Assembly: GCA_963539665.1 (NCBI GenBank) | Contig: CAUTOX010000002.1 | Location: 787 to 64,786, forward strand | Source: an uncultured Treponema sp. | Lineage (GTDB): Bacteria > Spirochaetota > Spirochaetia > Treponematales > Treponemataceae | DNA: 64,000 nt | Direction of reading: 5' to 3' | Part shown: piece after piece, positions 24,776-55,675 of the stretch | How positions within the stretch are numbered: position 1 is the stretch's first letter | Layout: every line of letters starts with the position of its first letter | The notes under the pieces: model-generated | What the model was told of the DNA's origin: nothing | The model's database searches: none | Seen by the model: the letters and a program-made list of their open reading frames with translations, nothing else | Made by a program: the position numbers and the translations under genes

Positions 24776-24789
24776 GCGCTTAACATTGT

Positions 24790-25480
24790 TGACCGCCTGT
24801 CTCAAGTTTGTCTGACGACAAACTTGCCAGTGGAGTCGTCGCCGGGGCGGACAGGACGGACTGAACCGAGAAGCGTTGACATGGTCGGCTGTCCACTTCA
24901 TGTTTTGCTGCAAGCAAAACATGCTAGCAGAGACGTAGACAGGCAGGAAGGATGCCGTAAGGACGTTACGCTGTCGGCCGCCTGCCTCAAGTTTTGTCTG
25001 ACGGCAAACTTGCGAGCAGGGACGGCTCGGCGGCGTAGCAGCTAGCAAGTTTTGCGTTTGCAAAACTTGGAGCAGACGGCCGTGCCGTTAAATCTTCCAA
25101 GTGCCATTTCTCTGTCCGCAGTGGTCGGGAGAACGAGCACCGTCGTAATGGAGTGGCTTGACCGACCGCTTCCAGTTTTGCGGGCACGAAACTGGCGAGC
25201 AGGTTCGTGGCACGGCGGTCGCGGTCGTGTAAAAAGGAACGCGGAGAGAACAGGGTATCTACTGCGGCGGGAGAATGGGCTTGACCACGTAGCAACTCGC
25301 AAGTGTTGCGCTTGCAAAACTTGGAGCGGACGGCCGTGCTGTTAAATCTTCTAAGTGCCCTTTCATCCGTCCGCCCCCCATTATGCAAGACCTTCTCGCC
25401 TGTTTTGCATAAAGCAAAACAGGAGGCAGGCGGACGCGGCCGTTCCAGCATTCCGGTATCACTTTCATCCGCCTGCCCCA
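24790..25480. repeat. Cluster of hairpin-bearing intergenic repeats (same family as 15130-15785)
   Basis: Seven spaced hairpins of the form CAAG-TTTTGC-loop-GCAAAA-CTTG, for example CATGTTTTGCTGCAAGCAAAACATG, CAAGTTTTGCGTTTGCAAAACTTG and CCTGTTTTGCATAAAGCAAAACAGG. GGACGG...TCCGTCCGCC blocks lie between them. Confidence 0.8.
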
Positions 25481-38711: not shown

Positions 38712-39588
38712 TTTTAAGTGTCGTTTTTGCAATGTCTGTAATGGGTACGGCTGTAAGGGCGAAATGCCGGGCATGGGGGGCGTTGACGACAGCCGCAATT
38801 TTATCTTGAACTGCGCAGACTGGGAAAAAATATATCATGCTGCCCTCCGTGATGGGAGTGCGCATGAAATCGACCGTATTCGGGTTAAAGCGGCGCACAT
38901 CGGGATTGCTCCGGTAACGGGCGCCGTTCAAAATGTCGGCTTTCAAAACGAACATGATTTTTACCTGCCGTATTTTACCGCTGCATATAACTGCGGCATT
39001 TTAGTCTGCACGGGCGATGGCGCGCCGGATGACAAGCTCGCGCTCAGCATCGAGGCAGTGCGGTCGCTCGGAACAAAGGCGTATTGCTTCCTCAAGCCCT
39101 ATCCCGACGATAACCTTTTGCGCCGCGTTGCGCTCGTCAAGGATCATGCGCTGGCAATCGGGATGGATATCGATGCGTACAATATTGTGTCGATGCGCGA
39201 TCAAGTGCGGCTGGAACGGAAAACGGCGGAGCAGATTGCATGGTTGCGCGGCGTTTCAAACCTGCCGCTCATGCTGAAAGGTATTTTTACGCCTGACGAC
39301 ATTGCGCTCTGCCGCGCTGTGCGGCCGGATATTGCGGTTGTCTCAAACCACGGCGGACGGGTGGATACCTGCATCGGTAGTACGGCGGAATTCTTAAAAG
39401 CGGCGGCGGGCGAATTGCATTCGTGTTGCGGAGAAGTATGGGTTGACGGCGGCATCCGTACCAAGCGCGACATCCAAACAGCGCTCTATCTTGGCGCTGA
39501 CCGCGTACTCATCGGCCGACCGTTCATCACTGCCGTTTGCAGAAGCGTTGGCACGATGGAAAACGCAATCCGCTCGCTGCTCGGCTGA
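38701..39588 (+). CDS. FMN-dependent alpha-hydroxy-acid dehydrogenase/oxidase family protein with an N-terminal Cys-rich motif
   Basis: SNHGGR, DGGIRTKRDI and LGADRVLIGRPF motifs. The N-terminus reads CRFCNVCNGYGC...PGMGG. A non-ATG (TTG) start overlaps the pfkA end, so the start is uncertain. Confidence 0.7.
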   Translation: MASDFKCRFCNVCNGYGCKGEMPGMGGVDDSRNFILNCADWEKIYHAALRDGSAHEIDRIRVKAAHIGIAPVTGAVQNVGFQNEHDFYLPYFTAAYNCGILVCTGDGAPDDKLALSIEAVRSLGTKAYCFLKPYPDDNLLRRVALVKDHALAIGMDIDAYNIVSMRDQVRLERKTAEQIAWLRGVSNLPLMLKGIFTPDDIALCRAVRPDIAVVSNHGGRVDTCIGSTAEFLKAAAGELHSCCGEVWVDGGIRTKRDIQTALYLGADRVLIGRPFITAVCRSVGTMENAIRSLLG

Positions 39589-40017
39589 ATGGGGCGCCCG
39601 TTAGCTCTGTTGCGCCGCGCGGCCGGATATTGCGGCTGTCTCAAACCGCGGCGGACGGGTGATACCAGCATCGGTAGTACGGCGGAATTCTTAAAAGCGG
39701 CGGCGGGCGAATTGCATTCGTGTTGCGGAGAAGTATGGGTTGACGGCGGCATCCGTACCAAGCGCGACATCCAAACAGCGCTCTATCTTGGCGCTGACCG
39801 CGTACTCATCGGCCGACCGTTCATCACTGCCGTTTGCAGAAGCGTTGGCACGATGGAAAACGCAATCCGCTCGCTGCTCGGCTGAATGGGGCGCCCGTTA
39901 GCTCTGTTGCGCCGCGCGGCCGGATATTGCGGCTGTCTCAAACCGCGGCGGACGGGTGATACCAGCATCGGTAGTACGGCGGAATTCTTAAAAGCGGCGG
40001 CGGGCGAATTGCATTCG
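39292..40017. repeat. Tandem repeat, 297-bp unit, about 2.4 copies: the 3' end of the preceding gene (with its stop codon) is reiterated
   Basis: ORFs 39589..39885 and 39886..40119 both encode ...IGSTAEFLKAAAGELHSCCGEVWVDGGIRTKRDIQTALYLGADRVLIGRPFITAVCRSVGTMENAIRSLLG, identical to the C-terminus of 38701..39588. Confidence 0.9.
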
Positions 40018-40178
40018 CGCTGCGGCAAAACGCGCTGCCTGAAAACCATTGCGGCCGTCGCCTTATATATACTTCTTTACCTGCGTTCTCGCAGTTTTCA
40101 TATTTTTCTGCACGGATGAGATGAGAGCTGCGGGATGTTGCGCTCTGAATCTTTCCCGCCTATTTTCGACACCGCATT

Positions 40179-41495
40179 TTACGCAACACGCGCGGCAAGA
40201 ATCATTGCCGCCGCTTTGTCGAATGTGAGGCCGGATGTAACTTCGCGCGTTTTAAGATTTTTGAGCGAAAGCGTGCCGGCGGAAGCGTCTTCTTCGGAAA
40301 TCAAGATGCCCCACGTAACGCCTTTCGCCTCCGCAACGGCATACTGCTGCGCCATCTTTTTCTGGTCGGGGAAGACCTCAACCAAAATCCCGCGGGCACG
40401 GAGCGCGGCGGCAGTCTTTTGATAGTGAACGAAATGCGCCTCGCACTGGCAGAAAATCTCCGCATCAAGGTAGCTTGTCTTCTTTTCAAGCCGTCCAAGC
40501 TGTTCGAGCGCGGCAATTAACCGGTCAAGTCCAATGCTGCCGCCGACACCCGGAATGCGCTCTTTTGTGTAGAGGGCGGTCAAATTGTCGTAGCGGCCGC
40601 CGGAGCAAATGGAGCCGATGGACGGCAGGTCGATTAAAAATGTTTCGTACACGAGGCCGGTGTAGTAATCAAGGCCGCGCGTAATCGTTGGATCAAAGAC
40701 GAACGCGGCTTCAATTCCAGCCGCGCACATCATCGCATATAGCGCGCGCATCCGCTCGCCGTCCGCCGCAATGCCTCCGGCAAGGCCTTCAAGCCGAGAT
40801 ACCGTCTCTAAAAACCCCTCTCCGGCAGGAACTCGAATGTAGCCGGTAATTTTTGCGGCAGCCTCCGCCCCGCAAAGCTCCGTAAGCTGGGCTTGCACCG
40901 CATCATCGCCGATTTTTGTACGCTTATCCACGGTGCGGAGAATCTCATCGCTTTTGTCCGCCACTCCTTCCGCCGCTAAAAATCTGCCGAACAAGCCGCG
41001 GTGATTTACGTGAATGCTGATGCCGCCCGCGCCAGCCGCTTCAAGCGCCTCTTTCATGACATTTAGAATCTCAAAATCGGAAGCCGCGCTGTCGGAACCG
41101 ACCGTATCGATGTCGCACTGCACAAATTCCCGATACCGCCCGGCCTGCGGCTTTTCCCCGCGCCACACCTTTGCAACGTGATAACGCTTGAACGGCACAT
41201 AGAGCGAACTGCGGTGTTCGGCCGTAAAGCGCGCAAACGGCACGGTTAAATCGAAGCGCAGCGCAACGTCTCGGCCGCCGTTGTCTTCAAATCGGAACAC
41301 CTGCTTTTCTGTCTCCCCATTGCTTTTGCGCAGGAGAATATCCGAATACTCGATCGCCGGCGTGTCGATCGGCACAAATCCGAACGAACGATACACGGCC
41401 GTTATTTTTTCGATAAGCGAAGTCCGCGCAATCTCCGCTTCCGGCAAAGAATCGCGGAACCCTTTGAGAATCCTTGGTTGAATGAGCGTATTCAT
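40179..41495 (-). CDS. hisS: Histidine--tRNA ligase
   Basis: Class II aaRS motifs (GFRD..., RYREFVQCD, GGRYD) and a C-terminal anticodon-binding domain. 438 aa. Confidence 0.9.
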   Translation of the reverse strand: MNTLIQPRILKGFRDSLPEAEIARTSLIEKITAVYRSFGFVPIDTPAIEYSDILLRKSNGETEKQVFRFEDNGGRDVALRFDLTVPFARFTAEHRSSLYVPFKRYHVAKVWRGEKPQAGRYREFVQCDIDTVGSDSAASDFEILNVMKEALEAAGAGGISIHVNHRGLFGRFLAAEGVADKSDEILRTVDKRTKIGDDAVQAQLTELCGAEAAAKITGYIRVPAGEGFLETVSRLEGLAGGIAADGERMRALYAMMCAAGIEAAFVFDPTITRGLDYYTGLVYETFLIDLPSIGSICSGGRYDNLTALYTKERIPGVGGSIGLDRLIAALEQLGRLEKKTSYLDAEIFCQCEAHFVHYQKTAAALRARGILVEVFPDQKKMAQQYAVAEAKGVTWGILISEEDASAGTLSLKNLKTREVTSGLTFDKAAAMILAARVA

Positions 41496-41529
41496 GCAGG
41501 TATACTAGTTAAAAAGAGGAGAAGTAACA

Positions 41530-42333
41530 ATGCTTTTAGCTTTTGACATCGGAAACACGAACATAAAAACCGCAATCGCTGAAGACGGCAAGATTCTCAG
41601 CGAATGGCGGCTGAGCACCGATCCTAAACGCACGGGGGACGAATATTTTTCGATTCTCCGCCCGCTGCTGCGCGATGCAGCCGTCGATTGCTCGAAAATC
41701 GAAAAAGCCGTCATCAGCTCCGTTGTGCCGGCGCTCATCGGCGCATTCGTTATCGTTACGCAGCATCTGCTCGGCAAAAAGCCGCTCATCATCGGCCCCG
41801 ACATCTACCCGCAGCTGCCGATAAAGCTGCCGGCAAGCGCGGCGCATGAGATCGGCACCGACTTACTGTGCAATGCTCTTGAAGCGTGGGAACGCTACCA
41901 GCAGCCGGTTATAATAGTTGATTTTGGTACGGCGCTGTCCTTTACGGCAGTCGGAAACAATGCGAACATCGTAGGCGTTGCCATTGCTCCGGGCATCGGC
42001 ACGGCGCTCAAGGCGCTTTTCATGAATACCGCGCAGCTGCCGTCCACCCCGCTCGACATTCCGCCGTCCAGTCTCGGAAAAACTACCACGTGGTCGATTC
42101 AAGCGGGAATCGTGCTCGGCTACAAGGGGCTGGTCGAATCGCTTATCCGGCAAATGAAGACGGATATGCAGCAGGAATTCGGCATACCGGCAGAGCGGAT
42201 TAAAGTCATCGGCACCGGCGGCCTCAATAGTATGCTTGAACCGATAACGTGTATCTTTGACACGATGGATAAAGCATTAACTGTCTACGGCATCATCCGC
42301 GCCGCCTCTTATTGCGCGGCGGGTTGCGAATAA
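41530..42333 (+). CDS. coaX: Type III pantothenate kinase
   Basis: LAFDIGNTNIK N-terminus, DFGTA and GTGG motifs. 267 aa. Confidence 0.85.
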   Translation: MLLAFDIGNTNIKTAIAEDGKILSEWRLSTDPKRTGDEYFSILRPLLRDAAVDCSKIEKAVISSVVPALIGAFVIVTQHLLGKKPLIIGPDIYPQLPIKLPASAAHEIGTDLLCNALEAWERYQQPVIIVDFGTALSFTAVGNNANIVGVAIAPGIGTALKALFMNTAQLPSTPLDIPPSSLGKTTTWSIQAGIVLGYKGLVESLIRQMKTDMQQEFGIPAERIKVIGTGGLNSMLEPITCIFDTMDKALTVYGIIRAASYCAAGCE

Positions 42334-42364
42334 TTTACCGTAAAGTAATTGCTTTCTGCACGGA

Positions 42365-42625
42365 CCGCTCAAGGTTTTTCATCGGGAAAACTTGAGAGAG
42401 GGGCTGCATACTGCGGGCGGAAAACGTTGTCTACCGGATAGCGAGCATTGTCGTCTATCTGCATCCAGTTTCTCAAATGCGAAACAGGTTAATGGTTCGT
42501 AACGAGGCGAACAGTTAAGGCGCTTGCCTCATTTTAGAGCCGTTACACTCGTCTGCAACCTTATCATCCCCCGAGCCAGATTTTCCTTTGCAAAAACTGG
42601 AGCGGACAGGGGGCTGCGGAAAGTT
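42365..42625. repeat. Three units of the hairpin-repeat family, between convergent coaX and the helicase gene
   Basis: CAAGGTTTTTCATCGGGAAAACTTG, GCATCCAGTTTCTCAAATGCGAAACAGG and CCAGATTTTCCTTTGCAAAAACTGGAGCGGACAGGGGG. Compare the array-unit core CTGCATCCGGTTTGTTTGGCGTAAACCGG. Confidence 0.7.
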
Positions 42626-42664
42626 TTGGCATAAAACAAGAGTAAATAAACTGTCGGAATGTTT

Positions 42665-44905
42665 TTAGCGCGTTCGTATTTCTTGCCATCCCAGCACCCG
42701 CTGCTTCATTCCGGCGATATCCAGCACCCCTAAGGCAAATCCTTTGCGTACCAGCTCAGAGGGAACATACTCGTCGTATTTGTCAAAGACGGGGACTTCG
42801 TTTTCGTACACAAGCTCCAGCGGGTCAAAGTTTTGTGCGGCTTCTTCGGCAATAATGCGATAGAATTCCTGTGCGCTTACCTGCATGGTAAACTGTAGGT
42901 AGTACGGTCTGGACGGACTCAAGCCTTTGAGCCCAAGCCGTGCACCGCAGCGGAGCTTGAGAAAGCGTTCCAACGCAAGAAAGGCATAGCTGCCCAGCTG
43001 AGGAAAGAGCGCCCACATAGAGCCGCCGAGGGAAATGAGCGGGTGAGTGTCCATCCCTGCCTTGCTGAACGTATTCCGCGCTTCCTGCAAACGGCACACG
43101 GCATGGCGCATCAGGTACGGATAGCTTTTCTGTTCGGCAAGAACAGTATGCATCCGTTCCAAGATACAGGTGTGTATATCGCCTGCCACATCACCGAAAT
43201 ACGCAGGGATATTCCCCTTTACCAGCGTACAGTATACCTCGCGGCGCTGGTGATCCACCTCGTCCACTGCCCACACCCTGCCTGCAATAGCTATCTTCTC
43301 GCCCGCAGGCGGCGGTTTGACGATTGTTCCCAGCTCTTCGGAACCGGAACGCACCGTGTATTCGATATTTTCTTGGAACACTGCGTAAAACTTATAATTG
43401 TTGACAACCCGCTCCCCGGTAATCCCGACAATCAGCCCGCCGTTTTCCGTGCGGTTGATATGATCAATAGTGATAAGGTGCCGGAGCAAGGTACGGAAGT
43501 CCTCCTGACTGATGCGGCGGAATACCGAAAGGGTCAGTACTCTGGAGGCCAGCTCCGCCGGTGTCATCTCACCTGAGGAGGCAAGCGTACTCATGGTCTG
43601 GTGATAGAGCAGGGAGAAGGGCAGCTTTTCCGTGCGCGGCGGTTCCACAAAGCGCTCTTCGATATAAAGCTGAACAAGTGCAATTCCTTGAATAAGATAC
43701 CACGGAATCATCTCCGGCAGCATCGCCCGCGCTTCGGGATGATCTTCCCGCATAACAAACCACATTTCCGAAGGAGTGCCGCGCCGTCCGGTACGTCCCA
43801 TACGCTGTAAAAAACCGGAAACGGTAAAGGGTGCATCAATCTGGAATGCCCGCTCCAGTCTCCCGATATCAATCCCCAGTTCCAGTGTAGCGGTAGCGCA
43901 CACACTGATAAGCGAGTCGTCATTCTTCATCTCCTCTTCCGCACTTTCGCGGTACGAAGCGGAAAGGTTGCCGTGGTGAATTAAAAAGCGGTCGGGTTCG
44001 TGATTAGCTTCACAGTATTGCCGGAGGTGCTGGCATACGGATTCGCACTCCTCGCGGGAATTGGTAAACACGAGGCATTTTTTACCGCGGGTATGCTCAA
44101 AGATATAGCCCATCCCCGGGTCTGCGGCCTTGGGGGCAGTATCCGTCGCGGGTTCTACCGTAAGCGCTTCGATGGTAATAGGCTTACCTTCGTCAGCTTG
44201 CGGCTCCGTATTGAAGAAGTGTTCCATCGAAAGCCGCCACACCTCTTTGCCGCCGTCGCATTTGGGGATAACCGTTTCTCTCCCGCTGCCTGCAGCAAGA
44301 AAGGCTCCCGCTTCTTCGGGATCGCCGAGTGTGGCGGAAAGACCAACCCGCCGGGGATTGCAGCCCGCCGTCCGGCAGAGCCGCTCAATTAAGCAAAAGG
44401 TTTGCCCGCCGCGGTCGGCACGCAGCAGGAAGTGGACTTCATCAATGACGACAAAGCGTAGGTCATGGAACAAAGAGGGTATTTCGCTCTGCTTGGTGAT
44501 CATCAGCGCTTCAAGGGATTCCGGGGTGATCTGCAAAATCCCCGCCGGTTTACGGAGCAGCTTCCGTTTTTGGCTTTGCGGCGCATCGCCATGCCATCGC
44601 GTTACGGCGATTCCTGCTTCCTCGCACAGCTCGTTCAGCCTCCCGAACTGATCATTGATGAGCGCCTTGAGCGGAGCGATATACAACACTCCCACCGAGG
44701 CAGACGGCTCTTCGTACAAGAGGCTCAGGATTGGAAAAAACGCCGCTTCGGTTTTGCCGGAGGCGGTGGATGCCGTCAGCAGCACATTGTTATCGGTATT
44801 GAAAAGAGCATCGCCCGCCGCATTCTGCACCGCGCGAAGCGTCTGCCAACCGGAGCGGTAAATATAATCCTGTATAAAAGGGGCGTATTGATTAAAAATG
44901 TCCAT
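42665..44905 (-). CDS. DEAD/DEAH-box SF2 helicase (Lhr-like; SngC-like component of a Shango-type system)
   Basis: Motif I ASTASGKTEAAF, motif II VVIDEVHFL, motif III GLSATLG, motif VI QRMGRTGRRG. There is a long C-terminal extension. Confidence 0.8.
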   Translation of the reverse strand: MDIFNQYAPFIQDYIYRSGWQTLRAVQNAAGDALFNTDNNVLLTASTASGKTEAAFFPILSLLYEEPSASVGVLYIAPLKALINDQFGRLNELCEEAGIAVTRWHGDAPQSQKRKLLRKPAGILQITPESLEALMITKQSEIPSLFHDLRFVVIDEVHFLLRADRGGQTFCLIERLCRTAGCNPRRVGLSATLGDPEEAGAFLAAGSGRETVIPKCDGGKEVWRLSMEHFFNTEPQADEGKPITIEALTVEPATDTAPKAADPGMGYIFEHTRGKKCLVFTNSREECESVCQHLRQYCEANHEPDRFLIHHGNLSASYRESAEEEMKNDDSLISVCATATLELGIDIGRLERAFQIDAPFTVSGFLQRMGRTGRRGTPSEMWFVMREDHPEARAMLPEMIPWYLIQGIALVQLYIEERFVEPPRTEKLPFSLLYHQTMSTLASSGEMTPAELASRVLTLSVFRRISQEDFRTLLRHLITIDHINRTENGGLIVGITGERVVNNYKFYAVFQENIEYTVRSGSEELGTIVKPPPAGEKIAIAGRVWAVDEVDHQRREVYCTLVKGNIPAYFGDVAGDIHTCILERMHTVLAEQKSYPYLMRHAVCRLQEARNTFSKAGMDTHPLISLGGSMWALFPQLGSYAFLALERFLKLRCGARLGLKGLSPSRPYYLQFTMQVSAQEFYRIIAEEAAQNFDPLELVYENEVPVFDKYDEYVPSELVRKGFALGVLDIAGMKQRVLGWQEIRTR

Positions 44906-45075
44906 CGTGTTTTCTCTGTTGAGCAGTGTACCTTCTTGTATACATTTGAATCACCGCCGTTCATGTCAGTACTGAGAATGATGTATCCAGTCAGTTCACC
45001 CGTCGGTTATTCCTCTGCATTCTTAGCGTCTTCACGGTTTATCTTTAAAGTAACCGCGGAAGTACGCGCAGGTAC

Positions 45076-45978
45076 CTATAGCGCTTCGACTTCTGCTGGA
45101 GAGATACCGGCTATTTTGCAAATATCTGTAAGGGGATAGCCCATAGAGAGCATCATTTTTGCCGTTTCGAGGGCTTTTTGACGAGAGCCTTGAGATATTC
45201 CTTGGGATATTCCTTGGGATATTCCTTGAGATATTCCTTGAGCAAAAGCTATTCTGCCTGCTTCTTCTCTCTGTACCGCAATATCGGTATCGTAGTCATA
45301 TTCGGCTACCAACATATTGATTACCTCCCGTGATTTTCGTTGTAGGTATTCTTTTAAGATTCCTTTTTCTATACATATCTTTACTGCATTGGTAAAGCCG
45401 TTTGCGCTGTCGAGTTGGGTTTGTTTTCTTACCTCTTCTACAAACAGGCTGTATTCTTCAAGCGGCTTGCAGGCTGCTAAGACTTTGTTCGCCTTATCTG
45501 TATTGATGTTCAAAACCTGTACAGTCAACTCCAGCGGGGCATGCTCGGGTTTTGTCATAAATGCATCTGAAAGCTTTAGAGTCGCGGTTTCAGGGTAATC
45601 TTCCAGCCCATTGTAAAATACATAGAACTCCGGAGCTGGTATCTTTGATAACTTTCTTAGATATCTGTCTGTTGGTGCTTGTAACTTTTCATAGATCCTT
45701 GCGATGTATTCCAAAAAGCGTAGGGGCATATTCTCGTTTACCGTAGACTGATGCTCCGCAAGAACGATGATTTTATTGTCCACAAGGCAAGACACATCGT
45801 TGATAATGTTCATGTACATGACATTATCAAGGCGTATGTTTTCTACCGGGCATGAAAGCTGTAAATTAGTATTATGCAAGGCATTATAGAGTGATAAAAA
45901 GTTCTCTTTAGCTTTTTCATCCTCACTGAATAGATCAACGAACACTGAATCTTTATATTTCCTGTTTGCCGTACCCAT
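45076..45978 (-). CDS. Rpn-family recombination-promoting nuclease / putative transposase (PD-(D/E)XK)
   Basis: 300 aa. YKDSVFVDLFSEDEKAKENFLSLYNAL...IIVLAEHQSTVNENMPLRFLEY. Paralog of 190..1068. Confidence 0.8.
   Translation of the reverse strand: MGTANRKYKDSVFVDLFSEDEKAKENFLSLYNALHNTNLQLSCPVENIRLDNVMYMNIINDVSCLVDNKIIVLAEHQSTVNENMPLRFLEYIARIYEKLQAPTDRYLRKLSKIPAPEFYVFYNGLEDYPETATLKLSDAFMTKPEHAPLELTVQVLNINTDKANKVLAACKPLEEYSLFVEEVRKQTQLDSANGFTNAVKICIEKGILKEYLQRKSREVINMLVAEYDYDTDIAVQREEAGRIAFAQGISQGISQGISQGISQGSRQKALETAKMMLSMGYPLTDICKIAGISPAEVEAL
45188..45243. repeat. 12-bp in-frame tandem repeat, about 4.6 copies, encoding (GISQ)4 in the Rpn C-terminal region
   Basis: CCTTGAGATATT / CCTTGGGATATT units run consecutively at 45188-45235, followed by a partial unit. 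Confidence 0.9.
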
Positions 45979-46222
45979 AACTGTTCATCCTATTCCGGCA
46001 AGGATACCGGTCGGTCAAAACTCACCCCGAACCATATGCAAGGATGCACAAGGTTTGTTATAGCATAGACCGCCAGATTTTTAAAGATACATAGAAGACT
46101 TAACCGCCAAAGCACAAAGTACGCTGTTAATTGGTTGTACGTCACTGTATGCAGGAAAAACTATGTAAAAACTCGCTGCTGCGCATTCCTTCGGCCATCC
46201 ATCACTCTTCTGCGCACTCACC

Positions 46223-47554
46223 TTAAATCGTAAACTCGGCATAGTTTTCATCGGTGGTGTCCGATACCGCATCAGACTTTGCGTACGAAAATGTATCGGA
46301 GTTTAGTAGCTCGATAATGCTCATTCCCGGATTTTGGTACAAAATATCCAGCAGCTCGATAAAATCCCGGATTACTTCGCGCGGGGTGATATGCACATCG
46401 GCGCCGATCCGCTCATATTCAATTCTGATAAACGCCGCCAAGTCGTCCGTGGTGATTTTCTGCTCATAGCCGTAGAGACCTGCGTGCATCGCAGCGAGCT
46501 TTTCACAGAGGATCAACATTTCTTCCGCAGTAATCGGGTCAAGCCGGATTACCGGCGCAAGTAAGTCCCGTGCACCGGGCTTGGAAAACTTCCCCTCTGC
46601 AAGACGGGAGCGGAGCGCCTCGTAGCTGTACACACCGCGCCGCTTATCCTCTATCGCCTGCGGTGTCGCCCCCATGATAATACCGAGGTATTTTGCCTTT
46701 CCTTGTAAGGTGTCGTTGTACATGGTGAGGAGTTTTTCGTAATTGTACTGGCGCGTGATGGAGTTGGGAACTTTATAAATATTGACGAGTTCGTCGATCA
46801 TAATCATCATGCCGGAATAACCCGCCAGCCGGAAAAATGTTGCAAAGAGCTTGAGATACTCGTACCAGTCATCATCCGTAATAATGATATTAACACCGAG
46901 TTCTTCCTTTGCTTCGCGCTTGAGGGCATATTCGCCCCGGAACCACCGCACTACTTTTGCTTTCGTTTCATCATCGCTCTTGAGGTACGCATGATAATAG
47001 GCTGAAAGTAATTGAGCAAACTCAAAACCGTGTACCAGCTCGCTCACCGAAGCGGTTACCGCGTAAATCTTTTGATCGACAAGCGCAGTCAATGCCGGAT
47101 CTCCGGGTTGAAGCCCGCTTTCTTGCAAGGCTTCACTTTGCACGGTGCTGATCCACCGCTCCAATATCAGCGTGAGTGCACCGCCCTCCGGTTTTGTCTT
47201 TGTGGAAAGATTCCCGATCAACTCGCGATAAGTTGCAAGCCCCTGTCCCCGCGTTCCTTGCAGCCTCCGTTCCGGCGACAGGTCTGCATCCGCAACAATG
47301 AACCCGCGATCCATCACATAATTCCGGATAGTTTGCAGTAAAAAACTCTTTCCCGCTCCATACCGCCCGACAATAAAGCGGAACGAAGCGCCGCCTTCGG
47401 AGATAATATCAACATCATGCAGCAAGGCTTGAATTTCATTTTTCCTACCGACGGTGATATACGGCAGCCCGATACGGGGCACTACACCGCCTTTTAAAGA
47501 ATGCAATACCGTCTGCGCAATCCGCTTTGGAACTTTTCTTTCCGCTTCGTTCAT
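46223..47554 (-). CDS. DUF2791/BrxD-like ATP-binding protein (SngB-like)
   Basis: 443 aa. The N-terminus LKGGVVPRIGLPYITVGRKNEI, then Walker A VGRYGAGKSFLL and Walker B MMIMIDELV, match the DUF2791 'BREX system ATP-binding' architecture. Confidence 0.75.
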   Translation of the reverse strand: MNEAERKVPKRIAQTVLHSLKGGVVPRIGLPYITVGRKNEIQALLHDVDIISEGGASFRFIVGRYGAGKSFLLQTIRNYVMDRGFIVADADLSPERRLQGTRGQGLATYRELIGNLSTKTKPEGGALTLILERWISTVQSEALQESGLQPGDPALTALVDQKIYAVTASVSELVHGFEFAQLLSAYYHAYLKSDDETKAKVVRWFRGEYALKREAKEELGVNIIITDDDWYEYLKLFATFFRLAGYSGMMIMIDELVNIYKVPNSITRQYNYEKLLTMYNDTLQGKAKYLGIIMGATPQAIEDKRRGVYSYEALRSRLAEGKFSKPGARDLLAPVIRLDPITAEEMLILCEKLAAMHAGLYGYEQKITTDDLAAFIRIEYERIGADVHITPREVIRDFIELLDILYQNPGMSIIELLNSDTFSYAKSDAVSDTTDENYAEFTI

Positions 47555-47805
47555 GTTATTTTATCTCCCACTATCCAGGACAACCGCATACGAATATTTT
47601 AAGCAGTTGTCTTCATTTTGTGCGAAATTTTTGAGAAAATTTCGCACAGGTTATTTTAAAAGCATAGAGCAATCGCATCAGAAGTGTAGATCGAATTCCG
47701 CAAAATAATAGGTTGGGCAACCATTTGAGATGCAACGCATCGAAATTCTGGTTGAACGGCCTATTATTTTGCGGGGGATTTACAATAGCCTCTGATGCGA
47801 TTGCC

Positions 47806-49923
47806 CTATCCCAATATCCCGATAATATCATCACGATAATCTTCCACAAGGGTAATTGTTTTACCGTCGCATTCTACCACCGTATCGCCGATAAGATCAA
47901 ACAATGCCTCGTTGATAGCATCGGCGATAACGCTCGGCATTCCATGCTGTGCTGCAATCAATTCCTGCACCGGCTCTCCGCGGAGCAGCATTTGCATCAA
48001 CTGGGTCTGCATACTATCCAATGGAAGAGCTTGTGCCCCCTTCATCGCTTGTTGGTATTCCCCGTGATTGTCGAGCAGATTTGTCTGACTCTGCGTTGTC
48101 GCCTTTTCTGCTGCGCCCGTATCATCTTGAGCGATAGGTGGTGGACTTTCTTTTTGTTTTACAGAAATAACCGCACGGTCTACCGCTCCAAGCTTCTCTT
48201 CTTCTGTCAAAAGACTGGACTGCGTTTTGAGCGCATCCTGTCGGATTTTATTCAGACCGGAAAAGTCAATCGTAATCTTCTGCCGCGCGGCTTCGATTTT
48301 GGCTTTTCGATCCGCTTCAATAACAGCTTCAATGTAGGGGACTGCCCATGCCGCTTCTTTCCGCTCTTTTAATGGATGTTTCGTTTTTAGATAGAGGCGT
48401 AAGCGCCGGTCGGTTTCATGGAGAAGATCGACGAGCCGCTGTTTTTGAAAAGAAGACTTCTGATATGACCGTATATACCATTCTTTATTCTTAAAAATAT
48501 ACGAGCGGCAGGAAGTCAATTCATACGTAAAGGATTTTTTTATTTCCTTGTTATGAAAAAATACACCGCTCAGAGGATACCATGGTGTGGAACTCCGAAT
48601 ACCGAAGCACAGCCTAAAAAGAGTTTGTCCATTTTCACGGTACTGTGCCGTAACGAGGCGAAATACTGCGGCAAAGAGTTTGACTGCTTCCGCGCCATAC
48701 AGCTGTATCACCGTTGATTCGGCGGTTTTCTTTTTGCCGAACTTACAAAGCGCCTTAAACACTTCGGCATCGCTGTATTTTTTAGGATGGCGCAAAATTT
48801 CAATCTCTGCATCTTCTTCCAACAATTCTTGATCAATATAAAGGCGCGCTGTTGTCGGCTCGATATTGTTCACTACGGCAAACTCCAGCGCCCATTCATG
48901 CAGTCTTTTTTGCAGAGTTTGACCGCCAAGTCCGGCATCGATATAGGCTCTTTCAAATTCTTGTATTTTTCTCAGACTGTCTTCCGCAGAGACCGCTCCG
49001 ATTCCATTCAACAGCTCTAACAGATAAATAAAAACAAAAGCTTCGCAGTGTTTTTGAAAATTCCCTTTCCGCAGTTCTGTCCGCCACGTAAAATATCCGC
49101 GCAGCTGCTTTATGGATAAATCATGATAGGTCATAAAACCATAGCTATATAGGTCTCCATACCAAGGGACATTATCTTCATAGTCCTCCATGAACTTCCC
49201 CTGTATATAGAAGTTTTTGTATCTCAATTCAAAAGAAAGAAGGAACCTCTCTTGGTAAAGAGCCTGCATCTTGCGTATTTGCTCAGGAACCGCCTGTTTC
49301 TTTTTTTGAACTTTTGCTTTTTTCTCTGTTTTTGAATTTGCATCTCCTATCTGCTGTTGCTTCTGATTTTTACCATATAAAGGCGTTTCCTTGTATTGCG
49401 TCTTCTCATGAATATCCGCATGGAGGACTAGCGTGCATCCTTTTTGTTCATCGAATGCCTCGCCCCCGCCCGGTGCCGTTTGAACTGCTGCTCCTGAAAT
49501 TACCGGTTCAGGCAATGCTTGAGCAGAAAACTTTGAGTGCGCTTCATCGCGTGTATTTGAGGGCTGATCAGTATTGTTCGTATTATGGGAAGGATGATTT
49601 TCTGCATAAAAAAGCACTGCTGCCATGTGTTTGCAATTATTACCACTTGTCGCATGAGGGCACGAGCAGTCCATATTGGAAACGCCGCCATCGGAAAGGG
49701 ATATGCTGACAGTGTAGATTTCAGAGCCCGCTACGTTTGCACGGATTTTTTGCTCGTTCCTCTCGAATGAAGCAACACAGCCGTGCTTGTAATAGTTCAA
49801 TCCGCGATTTAGTATTTTATCAGCAAATAAAGCGTTCCAATCCATAAGCCGGTATGCTAACACAACATGACTTCTTGTCAATATACGACAAAACCGATTG
49901 GAAAAATACCATATTAGAGCCAT
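47806..49923 (-). CDS. SWIM zinc-finger + TerB-N + TerB-C domain protein (SngA-like)
   Basis: SWIM CxCxnCxH motif: MDCSCPHATSGNNCKHMAAVLF. A low-complexity linker follows. TerB-N-like block: HDLSIKQLRGYFTWRTELRKGNF...FVFIYLLELLNGIG. TerB-C-like tail: LDSMQTQLMQMLL...IADAINEALFDLIGDTVVE. The more likely start is MDWNALF at 49845. Confidence 0.7.
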   Translation of the reverse strand: MALIWYFSNRFCRILTRSHVVLAYRLMDWNALFADKILNRGLNYYKHGCVASFERNEQKIRANVAGSEIYTVSISLSDGGVSNMDCSCPHATSGNNCKHMAAVLFYAENHPSHNTNNTDQPSNTRDEAHSKFSAQALPEPVISGAAVQTAPGGGEAFDEQKGCTLVLHADIHEKTQYKETPLYGKNQKQQQIGDANSKTEKKAKVQKKKQAVPEQIRKMQALYQERFLLSFELRYKNFYIQGKFMEDYEDNVPWYGDLYSYGFMTYHDLSIKQLRGYFTWRTELRKGNFQKHCEAFVFIYLLELLNGIGAVSAEDSLRKIQEFERAYIDAGLGGQTLQKRLHEWALEFAVVNNIEPTTARLYIDQELLEEDAEIEILRHPKKYSDAEVFKALCKFGKKKTAESTVIQLYGAEAVKLFAAVFRLVTAQYRENGQTLFRLCFGIRSSTPWYPLSGVFFHNKEIKKSFTYELTSCRSYIFKNKEWYIRSYQKSSFQKQRLVDLLHETDRRLRLYLKTKHPLKERKEAAWAVPYIEAVIEADRKAKIEAARQKITIDFSGLNKIRQDALKTQSSLLTEEEKLGAVDRAVISVKQKESPPPIAQDDTGAAEKATTQSQTNLLDNHGEYQQAMKGAQALPLDSMQTQLMQMLLRGEPVQELIAAQHGMPSVIADAINEALFDLIGDTVVECDGKTITLVEDYRDDIIGILG

Positions 49924-49943
49924 CTGGCAAGAAGTGAGCGAAT

Positions 49944-52450
49944 AGGATTTAATTTTGCAGTCCGCCGTCCTCCGGTGTGTTTGTGTAAACCTGCGAGGGG
50001 GAAATGCGTTGGGGCGGGCGGGATGAATTTTCCGGCGGAGTTAATTTTGCAGTCTGCCTACATCCGGCGTGTTTGGCGCAAACTGGCGAGAGAGGAATAC
50101 GTTGGGGCGGGCGGATGGATTTTTTCAGACGGATTTAGCTTTACCATCCGCTTGCCTCCGGCGTGTTTGGCGCAAAACGGCGAAAGGGGATGCGCTGAGG
50201 CTGGTGGGATGGATTTTTCTGACGGATTTAATTTTACCGTCCGCTTGCATCCGGTTTATTTGGCGCAAACCGACAAGAGGGAATGCGTTGGTGCGGGTGA
50301 GATGGATTTTTCCAGCGGAGTTAATTTTACCGTCTGCCTGCATCCGGCGTGTTTGTGCCAACCGGCGAGGGAGAAATGCGTTGATGCGGGATGGATGGAT
50401 TTTCCGGCAGAGTTAGTTTTACTGGCTGCCTGCATCCGGTTTGTTTGGCGTAAACCGGCAAGAGGGAATGCGTTGGGGCGGGCAGGATGAATTTTTCCGG
50501 CGGAGTTAATTTTATCGTCCGCCGGCCTCCGGTGTGTTTGGCGCAAACCAGCGAGAGAGGAATGCATTGGGGCTGCCGGGATGGATTTTCCGGCGGAGTT
50601 AATTTTACTGGCTGCCTGCATCCGGCGTGTTTGTGCAAACCGGTGAGAGAGGGAAATGCGTTGGGGCAGGCGGATGGATTTTTTCCAGCGGATTTAATTT
50701 TATCGTCCGTCTGCATCCAGCATGTTTGGCGCAAAACGGTGAGAGGGGAATGTGTTGGAGTGGGCAGAGGGATTTTTTCCAGCGGATTTAGTTTTACCGT
50801 CCGCCTGCATCCGATTTGTTTGGCGCAAACTGGCGAGAAGGGAATGCGTTGGTGTGAGCGGATGGATTTTTTCAGATGGAGTTAATTTTACCGTCCGCCT
50901 GCATCCGGTGTGTTTGCAACCGGCGAGAGAGGAGTGCGTTGGTGCTGACGGGATGGATTTTTCCAGCGGAGTTAATTTTATCGTCCGCCTGCCTCCGGTG
51001 TGTTTGTGCAAACCGGCAAGAGGGAATGCGTTGGGGCGGGCAGGATAGATTTTTTCAGATGGATTTAATTTTACCGGCCGTCTGCATCCGGCGTGTTTGT
51101 GCAAACCGGTGAGAGGGGAATGCGTTGGGGCGGGATGGATGGATTTTCTGGCGGAGTTAGTTTTATCGTCTGCCTGCATCCGGCGTGATTGGCGTAAACC
51201 GGAGAGAGAGGAATGCATTGGGCGGGCGGATAGATTTTTTCAGATGGACTTAATTTTACCGTCCGTCTGCATCCGGCGTGTTTGTGCAAACCTGCGAGAG
51301 GGAATACGTTGGGGCGGGCGGATGGATTTTTCAGATGGATTTAATTTTATCGTCCGCCGGCCTCCGGCGGAGTTAGTTTTACTGGCTGCCTGCATCCGGT
51401 GTGTTTGTGCCAACCGGCGAGGGAGAAATGCGTTGGTGCTAGCGGGATGGATTTTCCGGCGGAGTTACTTTTATCGTCCGCCTGACACCGGTTTGCGTAT
51501 GCAAAACGGTGAGAGGGAATGCGTTGGTGTGGGCGGAGGGATTTTTTCCAGCGGATTTAATTTTACCGTCCGCTTGCATCCGGCGTGTTTGGTGCAAAAC
51601 GGTGAGAGGAGGATGTGTTGGTGCGGGCGGGATGGATTTTCCGATGGATTTAATTTTACCGTCCGCCTGCATCCGATTTGTTTGGCGCAAAAAGGCGAGA
51701 GGGAAATACGTTGGGGCTGACGGGATGGATTTTCCGGAGGATTTAGTTTTACCGTCCGCCTGCATCCGATTTGCGTGTGCAAACCGGCGAGAGGGGAATG
51801 TGCGGGTGCTGGCGGGCTGGATTTTTCCGGCGGAGTTAGTTTTACTGCCTGCCTCCGGCGTATTTGGCGCAAACCGGCGAGAGGGGAATGCGTTGGTGCG
51901 GGCGAGATGGATTTTTCTGACGGATTTAATTTTACCGTCCGCTTGCATCCGGCGTGTTTGGCGCAAAACCGGAGAGAGAGTACCGCGCTGGTGCTGGCGG
52001 GATGGATTTTTCCGGCGGAGTTACTTTTGCAGTCCGCCGTCCGCCGGCGTGATTGGCGTAAACCGGAGAGAAAGGAATGCATTGGGCGGGCGGATAGATT
52101 TTTTCAGATGGATTTAATTTTACCGTCCGTCTGCATCCGGCGTGTTTGTGCAAACCGGTGAGAGAGGGAAATGCGTTGGGGCGGGATGGATGGATTTTTC
52201 GGATGGATTTAATTTTACCGTCCGCCTGACTTCGGTTTGCGTGTGCAAACCAGTGAGGGGAGTGCGTTGGTACGGGCGGGATGGATTTTTCCGGCGGAGT
52301 TAATTTTACTGGCTGCCTGCATCCGGCGTGTTTGTGCAAATCGGAGAGAGAGGAATGCGTTGGGGCGGATGGATTTTTTTCAGATGGATTTAATTTTACC
52401 GTCCGCCTGCATCCTATGTGCTTGTGCAACCGGCGAGAGGGAAACGACGC
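49944..52450. repeat. Array of about 27 degenerate tandem units of about 93 bp (hairpin-repeat family, minus orientation relative to the other clusters)
   Basis: Units start near 49947, 50040, 50133, 50226 and so on. Each contains TTAATTTTACCGTCCGCCTGCATCCGGCGTGTTTGTGCAAACCGG..GGGAATGCGTTGGGGCGGGCGGATGGATTTTT. Open reading frames appear in most frames on both strands. Confidence 0.9.
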
Positions 52451-52552
52451 TTGAAGACCGGACTCTAGTCGAGAACTCTTAAAAAAGGCTGCTGCCGCAA
52501 AACACTAAAAGCGGCAGCCGAACAAAACAGGCGCTCCTGCTGTTGGAAGAAC

Positions 52553-52695
52553 TTCTCTTCAGCATAATGAAGGGATGTCCTTCACGGTAATGAAGAACAC
52601 TCCTTCAGCATAATGAAGGGACGGCCTTCACGGTAATGAAGAACACTCCTTCTGCATAATGCAGGACAGCTCTGCACTATGCTGAAGGCAGAGGT
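52553..52695. repeat. Tandem 46-bp repeat made of two 23-bp half-units, about 3 copies, giving six phased CCTTCA-n6-TGAAG palindromes
   Basis: CCTTCAGCATAATGAAGGGATGT and CCTTCACGGTAATGAAGAACACT alternate. The offset between equivalent positions (52563, 52609, 52655) is 46. Confidence 0.8.
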
Positions 52696-52711
52696 CAGTT
52701 CCATCGTTCAA

Positions 52712-52835
52712 TAGACCTGTTCGGAAACTTCAGTTTCAGAACAGGCTACCTTGAAATGCGATGTTCTAAATCGTGCTATTTGCGCGATTTAGAACTCGAC
52801 GACCTGTTCGATAACTCTGTTATCGAACAGGTCTA
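52712..52835. mobile_element. Full-length (124 bp) MITE-like element with TAGACCTGTTCG...CGAACAGGTCTA termini and three internal palindromes
   Basis: TAGACCTGTTCGGAAACTTCAGTTTCAGAACAGG / TTCTAAATCGTGCTATTTGCGCGATTTAGAA / GACCTGTTCGATAACTCTGTTATCGAACAGGTCTA. Related copies lie at 30489-30589, 19350-19403, 28486-28522, 63021-63057 and 15844-15881. Confidence 0.7.
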
Positions 52836-53143
52836 ATCTCTATTCTCCGCTGCCCAACAAATTTCGTTTGAACCTAGTTTTGCCGCATGATAAAACGAGC
52901 GCGGGCGGTAACTCCGTTGCGTCTTTCAAATACCTTTTTTCTCGTCCGTAAAAGTCCATTTTCCTCCAAACATATCCATAATAGCATGGTTGTGGATATG
53001 CTCGGGCAGACGGAAGTTCTGTTATGTCTTTTAAACACTCTTTTTACCGCCCGCCGTTCCCATGTAAAAAGATTTCGTTATTTTGACAACCGGCGGTTTT
53101 ATTTATAGAATGCGGCTTCATATGACAGTTTGTAGGCGGGAAA

Positions 53144-55069
53144 ATGGCATACGTAAAAAATCTCTTCGATTCCAATTTTATTCAATATGCGAGTTATGTT
53201 ATCCGCGACAGGGCGATTCCCGAACTCATCGACGGCTTTAAGCCTGTCCAGCGGCGTATTTTGCATACGCTTTTGGAAAATGATGACGGCAAATTCACCA
53301 AAGTTGCAAATGTTGTCGGCAAAGTCATGGCATATCACCCGCACGGAGATGCGTCCATTTATTCCGCGCTCGTAAATCTTGCGAATAAAGAGATTTTTAT
53401 CGACAAGCAGGGGAACTTCGGCAATATGTACACCGGAGACAGCGCGTCGGCTCCCCGTTACATCGAATGCCGCCTCCGTCCCGTTACCAAAGAAATTATC
53501 TACAATCCCAAAATCACGCAGTACGTGCCGAGCTATGACGGACGCAGCAAGGAGCCGGTCGTATTCCGCGCAAAGTTGCCGCTCGTCCTTATCACGGGCG
53601 CGGAGGGGATTGCAGTCGGCATGAGTACGCAGATTTTAAGCCACAACGTCCATGAAGTTATCGAAGCCGAAAAAGCGTGCCTGCGCGGCGAGCCGTTCCA
53701 ACTTTTTCCCGATTTTCCGACCGGCGGGCTGATTGACTGCACGGAATACAAAGACGGACTGGGAAAAATCGTTGCGCGCGCCAAAATGGATACGAGCGAC
53801 GATAAAAAAATCGTTATCACGGAGCTTCCGTACGGCAGCACGTCGGAAAGTCTTATGGATTCGATTGAAAAAGCGGCGCGGAACGGCAAAGTCAAAATTG
53901 CGTCGATAAATGACTTTACTGCGGACACCGTAAATATCGAAATCCGCCTGCCGCGCGGCGTGTACGTCAAAGACGTTGTAGATTCGCTGTACGCATTCAC
54001 CGAGTGCGAAAAGACCGTCTACTGCAATCTGCTTGTTATAAAAGAAAATATGCCCGTTCAGATGACGGTAACGCAGGTTATTGAACACCATGCAAAGCAG
54101 CTGGTGGAAGTTCTGCATGACGAACTTGAGTTTGAAAAGTCGGAATTAAATGAAAAGCTGCACCTCCGGACGCTTGAGCGCATTTTTATCGAAGAGCGGA
54201 TTTACAAGTCGATAGAAGAGATGAAAACGGACGAAGCGGTCAAAGCGGCGGTCAAAGACGGCTTTATTCCGTTCAAAAGAGAGCTTTTGCGCGACGTAAC
54301 TGACGAGGACGTTGCTCACCTGCTCAAAATCCCCATCCGGCGCATATCGCTGTACGACATAAACAAAAACCGCGAGGAAGTGAACGCGATAAACGCGCGG
54401 CTTAAAGAAATTGCGCGCCTTTTGCGCCATCTTACCGACTATGCGCTCAGCTGGCTTGAGGGGATTGAAGCGAAACTTGAGCCGCCGCTCCTTACGCGCC
54501 GCACGACGCTCCAAACGATTGAAACAGTCGATGCGCGGAGCGTCGTCAAGCGCGATATTGCCCTGCGCTACGATGAACGCGCCGGTTATCTTGGTACGCA
54601 AGTGTATTTCGGAAGCGAATTGCTGAAAATCAGTCAATTTGACCGCATTCTCTACGTGCGGAAAAGCGGCATCTACACGGTTACGGAAGCCCCCGCAAAG
54701 GTTTTCGTTGGCCCCCAGCTGCGCTGCGTAACCTTTGCTGACAAGGAAAGCCTCGCAAAAATCCTGTTTACTGTCATTTATATGGAAAAAGAGACGCATC
54801 TGGCGTACATCAAACGCTGTAAGATTTCGGGCTACATCATGAACCGCGATTATTTTCTTGCGCCGGACGGAATGGACGTGCTGCACGTGGATATGCGAAA
54901 GAGTTTCACGTTTACGCTCCGCTACGTGCAAAAACCGCGCGTAAAAATCCTGACGGAAACATTTAAGGCCGAAAGTTTCCCGGAAAAAGGGCTGAAAGCG
55001 CAGGGCGTAAGAATTTCGGTAAAAGAGGCGGAAGCAGTTATTGTCGAAAATGAATCGGTAACAGGCTGA
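53144..55069 (+). CDS. parC: DNA topoisomerase IV / gyrase A-type subunit (short ParC-like form)
   Basis: DGFKPVQRRILH, AYHPHGDASIY and the active-site region SAPRYIECRL. At 641 aa it lacks a long C-terminal beta-pinwheel region, like spirochaetal ParC. Confidence 0.8.
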   Translation: MAYVKNLFDSNFIQYASYVIRDRAIPELIDGFKPVQRRILHTLLENDDGKFTKVANVVGKVMAYHPHGDASIYSALVNLANKEIFIDKQGNFGNMYTGDSASAPRYIECRLRPVTKEIIYNPKITQYVPSYDGRSKEPVVFRAKLPLVLITGAEGIAVGMSTQILSHNVHEVIEAEKACLRGEPFQLFPDFPTGGLIDCTEYKDGLGKIVARAKMDTSDDKKIVITELPYGSTSESLMDSIEKAARNGKVKIASINDFTADTVNIEIRLPRGVYVKDVVDSLYAFTECEKTVYCNLLVIKENMPVQMTVTQVIEHHAKQLVEVLHDELEFEKSELNEKLHLRTLERIFIEERIYKSIEEMKTDEAVKAAVKDGFIPFKRELLRDVTDEDVAHLLKIPIRRISLYDINKNREEVNAINARLKEIARLLRHLTDYALSWLEGIEAKLEPPLLTRRTTLQTIETVDARSVVKRDIALRYDERAGYLGTQVYFGSELLKISQFDRILYVRKSGIYTVTEAPAKVFVGPQLRCVTFADKESLAKILFTVIYMEKETHLAYIKRCKISGYIMNRDYFLAPDGMDVLHVDMRKSFTFTLRYVQKPRVKILTETFKAESFPEKGLKAQGVRISVKEAEAVIVENESVTG

Positions 55070-55675
55070 ATGGAAAAGCTAACCGCCTATGCCGCAGCGG
55101 AGTTGACCGTAAAAAAATCACGCTTTTTCAGCGAACTCTTTCCGTGCGCTGACCAAGCCGCCGCCCGCGCAATCATAAAAGCACAGAAAGCGCGATACAG
55201 CGACGCCGCCCACGTGGTACACGCTTTCGTGTTGGGCGCGAACGCGGAAATTATGGGCATGAGTGATGACGGAGAGCCGTCCGGAACTGCCGGCCGCCCC
55301 GCACTCGATGTGCTCAAAGGCAAACAGTGTACGGATTTAGTATTAACGGTAACGCGCTGGTTCGGCGGCATCCTTTTAGGGACCGGCGGCCTTGTCAAAG
55401 CATACGGCGAAAGCGCAAAGCGCGTCATTGCAGCGGCAGAAAGCGCAGGCGCATTTGCCCCCATCATTGCCGAAAAAATATTTACGTTCACCTGCGATTA
55501 CGCGCACTACGAAGCCGTCCGCCGCCAGATGGAACGCTTCGCCGTTCGCGGTTTAACAGAAAACTTCGGGGCGCTCGTTACCGTGCGCGGCTCCATCCCC
55601 GCCGAAAAATCCCCCGCATTCGCCCGCCAGCTTACAGATTGCAGCAAAGGCGCCATTGCATTAGGCTGGCAGTGA
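55070..55675 (+). CDS. yigZ: YigZ/IMPACT-family (UPF0029) protein
   Basis: KKSRFFSELFPC...HVVHAFVLG...SDDGEPSGTAGRPALDVL. There is a C-terminal DUF1949-like region. Confidence 0.75.
   Translation: MEKLTAYAAAELTVKKSRFFSELFPCADQAAARAIIKAQKARYSDAAHVVHAFVLGANAEIMGMSDDGEPSGTAGRPALDVLKGKQCTDLVLTVTRWFGGILLGTGGLVKAYGESAKRVIAAAESAGAFAPIIAEKIFTFTCDYAHYEAVRRQMERFAVRGLTENFGALVTVRGSIPAEKSPAFARQLTDCSKGAIALGWQ

Follow-up and report, generated by a model that had tools for sequence, protein, structure and literature searches.

A 64,000-nucleotide stretch of an uncultured Treponema sp. genome (GenBank assembly GCA_963539665.1, contig CAUTOX010000002.1; hereafter the window) carries a Shango defence island with members of one intergenic repeat family on both of its sides. 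The gene order of the region is hisS (- strand), coaX (+), sngC (-), an Rpn/YhgA-like gene (-), sngB (-), sngA (-), a 2.5-kb repeat array, parC (+), and a yigZ-like gene (+) (Table 1). A sequence-only reading of this region had proposed that the repeats may act as recombination hot spots or landing pads where defence cargo is exchanged, or that the island arrived within a repeat tract that later expanded on one side. We evaluated these proposals across the assembly, a metagenome-assembled genome (MAG) of a gut Treponema (180 contigs, 2.36 Mb, 49% GC; hereafter G000) with crude open reading frame calls as genes, and across related genomes. Overall, the bracketing is probably a co-occurrence, i.e., the by-product of an abundant, clade-restricted repeat whose units beside the island are ordinary members of the family, and a dedicated landing pad for defence genes was not supported.

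The island at 42665-49923, at first called Shango-like, was confirmed as a true Shango system by PADLOC and Pfam, with the predicted TerB-domain protein SngA, BrxD-like ATPase SngB, and DEAD/DEAH helicase SngC encoded together. PADLOC scores were 1.9e-280 for SngC, 5.4e-190 for SngB, and 2.6e-66 for SngA, and the Pfam domains comprised TerB_N/TerB_C, BrxC_BrxD, and DEAD with Helicase_C. Relatives of the adjacent CoaX were all from Treponema, the closest (97%) being encoded by G021, an "uncultured Treponema sp." genome that represents a different species (mean identity over aligned blocks of about 86-87%).

To the right of the island, a 27-unit array lies directly outside the start of sngA, as the sequence-only reading had placed it. 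Its units are 90-95 bp long with a period of ~93 bp, all are on the + strand, and a distance of 11 bp separates the first from the start annotated for sngA (49923). It is the largest array of the family in the assembly, and the mean pairwise identity among its units is 78%. Two sigma-70-like promoter matches on the - strand (49881-49854 and 49930-49903) fall within the annotated 5' end of sngA, i.e., between the array and the gene body, so that the true start codon may be further downstream than annotated and the promoter would not be within the array. The promoter-like site of parC is likewise outside the array.

To the left, a hidden Markov model (HMM) built from the 27 array units alone had no match in the coaX-sngC gap, even at E<10, and repeat units were found there only with a family profile iterated four times over the whole genome. 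The same profile yielded 0 matches at E<1e-3 in a locally dinucleotide-shuffled genome, and the left units are therefore true, diverged members of the family. Three such units had been reported at 42365-42625. Two of them are near-full-length, lie on the + strand like the whole array, and are spaced by ~94 bp, while the third is weak and aligns best in the inverted orientation, its hairpin core being quasi-palindromic. The first unit begins at 42334, on the base after the coaX stop codon and 31 nt before the start first reported.

The clusters on the two flanks thus belong to one family, but their homology holds at the family level only. Left units share 59-63% identity with array units, compared to the 78% found within the array, and their similarity to the array consensus ranks at the 24th and 4th percentile among 520 units of other loci, so that they show no special closeness to the array relative to units from elsewhere in the genome. 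The longest exact run common to both flanks is 11 nt, which is too short for efficient homologous excision by RecA-dependent recombination.

Table 1. Positions (in the window), strands and supporting evidence for the genes and repeats around the Shango island.
Feature	Position	Strand	Evidence or detail
hisS-coaX conserved block	40179-42333	hisS 40179-41495 (-); coaX 41530-42333 (+)	Pfam, blastn against G021
Left repeat unit 1, diverged full-length	42334-42421	+	nhmmer E 3e-6 genome-wide, profile positions 1-89
Left repeat unit 2, diverged full-length	42428-42513	+	nhmmer E 1.7e-6, profile positions 3-87
Left repeat unit 3, weak, partial	42550-42609	best on -	nhmmer E 1.6e-3, profile positions 28-87
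sngC, predicted Shango DEAD-box helicase	42665-44905	-	PADLOC, blastn, BLASTP
Rpn/YhgA-like PD-(D/E)XK gene between sngB and sngC, GC 41%	45076-45978	-	Pfam Transposase_31, 24.4 bits
sngB, predicted Shango BrxD-like ATPase	46223-47554	-	PADLOC
sngA (SWIM + TerB_N + TerB_C), mosaic gene	47806-49923	-	Pfam, PADLOC, BLASTP
27-unit head-to-tail array, ~93-bp units	49934-52444	+	Repeat finding, Tandem Repeats Finder, unit list
Spacer upstream of parC	52438-53082		23-bp palindromes 52546-52683; miniature inverted-repeat transposable element 52712-52835
parC-yigZ conserved block	53083-55675	+	Promoter-like site 53083-53111; parC 53144-55069; yigZ-like 55070-55675

An abundant, clade-restricted family of structured repeats

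Across G000, the family comprises 550 units in 162 clusters on 85 contigs. Together they span 50.5 kb, equal to 2.1% of the assembly and ~9.5% of the non-coding portion. Most arrays run head-to-tail in a single direction, with up to 28 matches and gene ends 4-80 bp away, and single units also occur; 24 contig ends fall inside arrays, and in this fragmented MAG the array copy numbers may be underestimates. At least 149 units were found in G021, 19-36 in each of four relatives, 5 in one genome and 1 in another, while 58 of the 60 other sampled members of the genus had none. Judged from these genomes, the family is restricted to a small clade of gut Treponema. Copy number differs between G000 and G021 at orthologous sites (7 vs 1, 7 vs 0, 10 vs 2, and 4 vs 7 units, with 8 vs 8 at another), and the earlier suggestion of a later expansion on one side of the island fits such changes.

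Two other clusters of the family lie within the window, namely seven mixed-orientation units at 24779-25436, next to a gene for an MMPL-family membrane protein, and a single unit at 10422-10482. Neither is beside defence genes. Elsewhere in G000, the subfamily to which the 27-unit array belongs is represented by five units at the end of contig C9 (C9:73-502), where they adjoin an MntR/DtxR-like repressor gene and are preceded by a poly-G run. Either this subfamily is thus not specific to the Shango locus, or, in the sample, the array also occurs beside another neighbour.

Bracketing of gene blocks by the family is about as frequent as expected by chance. About 6% of intergenic gaps (0.059) carry the family, and 3 four-gene blocks have family-bearing gaps on both sides, compared to 3.3 +/- 1.7 under random placement. 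Nor do the arrays favour defence genes: 29 of the 30 genes beside the 20 largest other arrays are housekeeping or not defence-related (e.g., pyk, pgk, a class II Asp/Lys/Asn-type tRNA synthetase, pgm, methyl-accepting chemotaxis proteins, and transporters), and the remaining one encodes a DNA methyltransferase.

A partner recombinase was likewise not apparent in G000. Rpn genes could be ruled out as partners of the arrays, there being only two Rpn loci, for which the nearest cluster is 2.6 and 9.4 kb away. REP-associated tyrosine transposases (RAYTs; REP, repetitive extragenic palindrome) were ruled out as well, since the PF01797 matches are two IS200 copies without flanking family units. These IS200-like elements encode only a Y1 transposase, are ~578 bp long and 97% identical to each other (C135:4195-4771 and C152:2741-3315), and have end hairpins, CCCCGACGCTTGCGTCG, unrelated to the repeat family. 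For an integron integrase, the best TIGR02249 match scored 72 bits against a cut-off of 265, and all 14 control genomes gave similar sub-threshold matches.

In each unit, an AT-rich linker precedes a nested palindrome that is GC-rich and has an outer stem of ~9 bp and an inner stem of ~7 bp. In an alignment of 39 units from different loci, 85% of stem cells were paired, vs 33-53% with slid partners, and 49 cells were changed on both sides of a stem, vs 17 +/- 3 in shuffles (0 of 500 shuffles reached 49). RNAalifold found no consensus structure for 195 HMM-aligned units, but the column pairs with the strongest covariation, by mutual information, are located in these two stems. Since the unit length of 90-95 bp is not kept in frame, the array is non-coding.

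Conserved, covarying stems could point to a local function for Shango or parC, i.e., a structured RNA, an insulator, a terminator, or a promoter array, and the array does abut the start of sngA while the left units occupy the convergent 3' region of coaX and sngC. We consider such a function very improbable. Single array units fold no better than shuffles (z -0.5 to -1.2). Promoter- and terminator-like sites occur at the level of shuffles and are not periodic with the units, and the promoter-like sites of parC and sngA lie outside the array. Unit orientation relative to the flanking genes is unbiased genome-wide (32 co-oriented, 22 anti-oriented), and unrelated genes adjoin the same family. 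No Rfam match was obtained at E<=1 in the window at 41000-54000, and four other arrays gave a single match at chance level. G-T pairs were not in excess over A-C pairs once two doubtful terminal pairs had been dropped (144 vs 123). Because of this lack of G-T excess, orientation bias and Rfam matches, together with the shuffle-level promoter and terminator sites, we favour a palindrome acting at the DNA level over a specific RNA.

A literature search found no described Treponema repeat of this kind, and the family is apparently an undescribed ~90-bp structured tandem repeat. It resembles REPs and bacterial interspersed mosaic elements (BIMEs), Neisseria intergenic mosaic elements (NIMEs), and mycobacterial interspersed repetitive units (MIRUs) in kind, but lacks defining features of each. 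REPs, found with RAYTs in Enterobacteria and Pseudomonas as BIMEs or as REP doublets forming hairpins (REPINs), are ~20-40 nt long and form inverted doublets or alternate in orientation. Like them, the Treponema units are hairpin-capable imperfect palindromes present in hundreds of intergenic copies, clustered, lineage-specific, and with no clear coding capacity; unlike them, they measure ~90 nt and are nearly all head-to-tail, without inverted doublets or a cognate RAYT. MIRUs occupy tens of loci, mostly inside operons, and contain small overlapping reading frames. With these variable-number tandem repeats, the Treponema family has in common head-to-tail units of 50-100 bp at many intergenic loci, arrays that abut genes, and copy-number variation, a resemblance of kind and not of homology, but it differs by its 162 clusters, its covarying nested hairpin, a unit length that is out of frame, and the lack of operon preference.

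Integron attC sites are also hairpin-forming imperfect palindromes, of 60-140 bp, and Treponema denticola has a chromosomal integron. Both kinds of element are hairpin palindromes able to flank acquired genes. However, the Treponema family lacks an IntI, its units are contiguous without cassettes and spread over 85 contigs, and no RYYYAAC/GTTRRRY core sites are seen at the unit ends (on inspection of the consensus only). The TD-1 and TD-2 motifs of T. denticola (Rfam RF03155 and RF03162) are similarly dispersed, orphan intergenic hairpin repeats, but do not have the tandem ~90-bp architecture, and the family has no Rfam match. Finally, a CRISPR array is not a suitable model, as the units tile the array without spacers and are only 78% alike.

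A precedent for a role in gene exchange comes from the NIME arrays, in which dRS3 inverted repeats alternate with RS units and which have been considered together with minimal mobile elements (Bentley et al. 2007, PMC1797815). These arrays were proposed to promote exchange of the genes that they flank, including "array-flanked genes inserted into chromosomal arrays" (PMC1797815), and the same proposal has now been made for the Treponema family. Both systems consist of non-coding units of ~50-150 bp, arrayed in a large number of intergenic gaps, with GC-rich palindromic parts alternating with AT-richer parts, and unit number differs at syntenic sites in both. The Treponema family nonetheless has no dRS3 (0 matches in the window to the motif ATTCCCN8GGGAAT with <=1 mismatch) and forms one homologous ~90-bp tandem family rather than >100 RS families. 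Its host is a spirochaete without a DNA-uptake signal, no such sequence standing out in k-mer counts. To our knowledge, no phage or recombinase is known to target its units.

Recent exchange of Shango alleles between genera

Shango is rare in the genus, SngB being encoded by 1 of the 151 genomes sampled. Proteins with 98-99% amino acid identity to this SngB occur in about ten species of another Treponemataceae genus (g31) and on >100 public contigs. There, the locus is conserved and compact (grpE-dnaK-dnaJ-x-ogt-sngA-sngB-sngC-helicase-flavin reductase-SDF), and these donor-type loci carry no units of the repeat family. Nucleotide identity to the donor-type genus reaches 96% for sngB and sngC, compared to 73% for dnaK. 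The near-identical stretches in the window are 42686-44907, 46197-47575, and 47809-48026. SngC is 98% identical to the donor-type allele at the amino acid level, with homology ending at 42686 and the last five residues differing, and sngA is a mosaic in which near-identity to the donor-type allele is confined to the last ~45 residues, the rest sharing 54% amino acid identity. On this pattern, the segment spanning the 3' end of sngA, sngB, and sngC looks like the product of a recent allelic exchange between genera. Since the limits of homology lie inside the sng genes, the expected route is a homologous replacement within an existing Shango locus, not one via the repeats.

The Rpn gene between sngB and sngC is missing from the donor-type loci, and on that comparison it appears to be a later or separate insertion. 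Shango loci in two genomes of the same genus and one of a third genus (71-86% SngB identity) have neither coaX or parC neighbours nor family units. The spacer between sngA and sngB (47611-47776) contains a 26-nt inverted repeat at 47698-47774 and may represent a small element of mobile or terminator-like nature. Donor-type genomes have a sequence of 76% identity to it in the intergenic region that separates their flavin reductase and SDF genes (L196 17529-17692).

Gene-order breaks at the repeat arrays

The sequence-only reading had suggested comparing the coaX-parC interval across relatives. No relative has such an interval (ParC was never encoded within 10 kb of hisS-coaX in 40 listed relatives), so that these genomes offer no view of alternative cargo within the same flanks. 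In these 40 relatives, hisS-coaX precedes differing genes, and in relatives parC-yigZ likewise has differing genes upstream. The Shango operon is located at a species-specific junction of these two small conserved blocks.

We compared gene order between G000 and G021 over 1.03 Mb of the latter (40% of one sister genome), which included 27 informative array-bearing gaps. An association of arrays with variable neighbours, as for NIMEs, would fit units that are break-prone or serve as enzyme substrates that capture foreign DNA. In the raw counts, 4 array-bearing gaps were collinear and 23 broken, vs 318 and 103 for other gaps (odds ratio (OR) 17.8, p 3e-10), i.e., 24% of all gaps were broken. However, this excess was not significant among length-matched gaps (>=300 bp), of which 30 were collinear and 59 not (85% vs 66% broken, OR 2.9, p 0.09). 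Similarly, a G000 array lay within 100 bp outward of 6.5% of the 139 internal ends of collinear blocks, vs 2.0% of random positions (3.2x), but an array in either genome was found at only 13% of these ends. It follows that arrays are dynamic and concentrated at plastic junctions, either as a cause of plasticity or through a preference for long, dispensable gaps.

Several observations weigh against the by-product explanation and would be in keeping with repeats that take an active part in rearrangement. The outer borders of the repeat-island-repeat segment are exact breakpoints: blastn homology to G021 stops at 42319, a point that is 14 nt short of the coaX stop codon and coincides with the start of the first left unit, and resumes at 53083, at the -35 box of the promoter-like site of parC, while homology to a further genome, G025 (92%), sets in precisely at position 52438, where the array has its outer edge. 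The spacer upstream of parC is therefore common to G000 and G025 but not G021. In G025 (L191, C59 15898-16364), genes for tRNA-Gln(CTG) and tRNA-Glu(CTC) lie 275 bp from the start of this homology, and neither array nor Shango is present; the G000 window has no tRNA genes. In these comparisons, the 10.8-kb segment made of left units, island, and array appears species-specific with sharp borders. In G021, coaX is followed by an SDF symporter gene and an MmeI-type gene without repeats. The G000 orthologue of the SDF gene is found elsewhere (contig C140:381-1852), with two family units ~50 bp from its start, and this second breakpoint therefore also carries the repeat. Of the informative array-bearing gaps, 85% are non-collinear with G021, and in 4-8 other cases both species retain the array next to one conserved flank but have a different neighbour on its other side. 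Moreover, taken by itself, a block specified in advance would have units in the gaps on both of its sides with a probability of only ~0.35% (0.059 squared).

The flanks of the segment are also unusually close to G021, with 95.0% identity at 40179-42319 and 96.9% at 53083-55657 compared to a median of 84.6%, and only 11 of the 253 alignments of >=1 kb have an identity of >=95%. From these values, the core DNA to the left and right of the variable segment seems to have been exchanged recently by homologous recombination, which fits a recombination-active neighbourhood but does not implicate the repeats. Further left, a 297-bp tandem repeat (2.4 copies, 97% matches) lies at 39306-40025, downstream of a gene ending at 39588, and the G021 counterpart of this region aligns twice.

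Explanations for the bracketing

As the family occupies ~160 intergenic sites, a by-product of its abundance is the most likely explanation of the bracketing, rather than a dedicated docking site. New gaps would be seeded by units, by whatever route, and arrays would then expand locally by slippage or unequal crossing-over. Units would accumulate in long, dispensable, and recently rearranged gaps; both gaps beside the Shango operon would be of that kind and, for this reason, both carry units, with the 27-unit array grown in place on one side. The repeats would then mark a plastic region and at most add to its fragility, through hairpin-induced stalling or breaks that favour illegitimate joints.

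The earlier proposal of a recombination hot spot or landing pad, with Shango inserted at an active, NIME-like site, captured the plastic nature of the junction. It has on its side the raw excess of broken gaps, the base-exact edge of the array against G025 with tRNA genes beyond, the coincidence of the coaX-end breakpoint with the first unit, the units at the relocated SDF gene, the arrays near block ends, and the Neisseria arrays as a precedent (PMC1797815). We nevertheless regard it as unlikely: the excess fades when gap length is matched, most block ends have no array, housekeeping genes adjoin the arrays and bracketing occurs at chance frequency, no recombinase is linked to the family (no RAYT, no integron integrase, and two Rpn genes that are not near other arrays), and the sole traceable transfer, that of sngB-sngC, has its homology limits inside genes. 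A more specific version, in which units are recognition sites of a structure-specific recombination or repair activity and arrays are NIME-like joints for blocks including Shango, would explain both the breakpoints at array edges and the rare collinearity of array-bearing gaps, but is to our minds distinctly doubtful.

Alternatively, the island may have split one earlier repeat tract, of which the left units would be decayed relics and the right part would have expanded to 27 units. With ~9.5% of non-coding DNA in arrays, neutral insertions would often land in them, arrays expand and contract fast, and the first two left units share the orientation and approximate spacing of the array. Yet the left units do not resemble the array more than units of other loci do, the third is inverted, neither a target duplication nor a shared junction sequence beyond the 11-nt run was found, and no relative has an uninterrupted coaX-parC tract, so we hold this origin to be quite improbable. 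An assembly artefact, i.e., a contig chimeric across repeats, is scarcely credible, even in a MAG of 180 contigs with 24 ends in arrays and the same array subfamily at the end of contig C9. The sequence of the left units is unique, and the coaX/unit-1/unit-2 sequence recurs on an independent metagenome contig (L218, sample ERZ772953), so that this junction is not a chimera of the MAG; the assembled sequence that runs from the array's outer edge towards parC is borne out by the G025 contig, and the array units are diverged enough (78%) to assemble.

Taken together, these results describe a clade-restricted family of structured tandem repeats that accounts for 2% of a gut Treponema genome and causes breaks in its assemblies, and they provide a quantitative but underpowered hint that its arrays mark places of gene-order change. 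Should the hot-spot proposal prove true, the family would be a spirochaete counterpart of the NIME and minimal-mobile-element system of Neisseria. More generally, an abundant intergenic repeat can mimic a cassette-exchange platform around a defence island, at a locus that otherwise offers what looks like a clear case of recent exchange of Shango alleles between genera by recombination inside genes.

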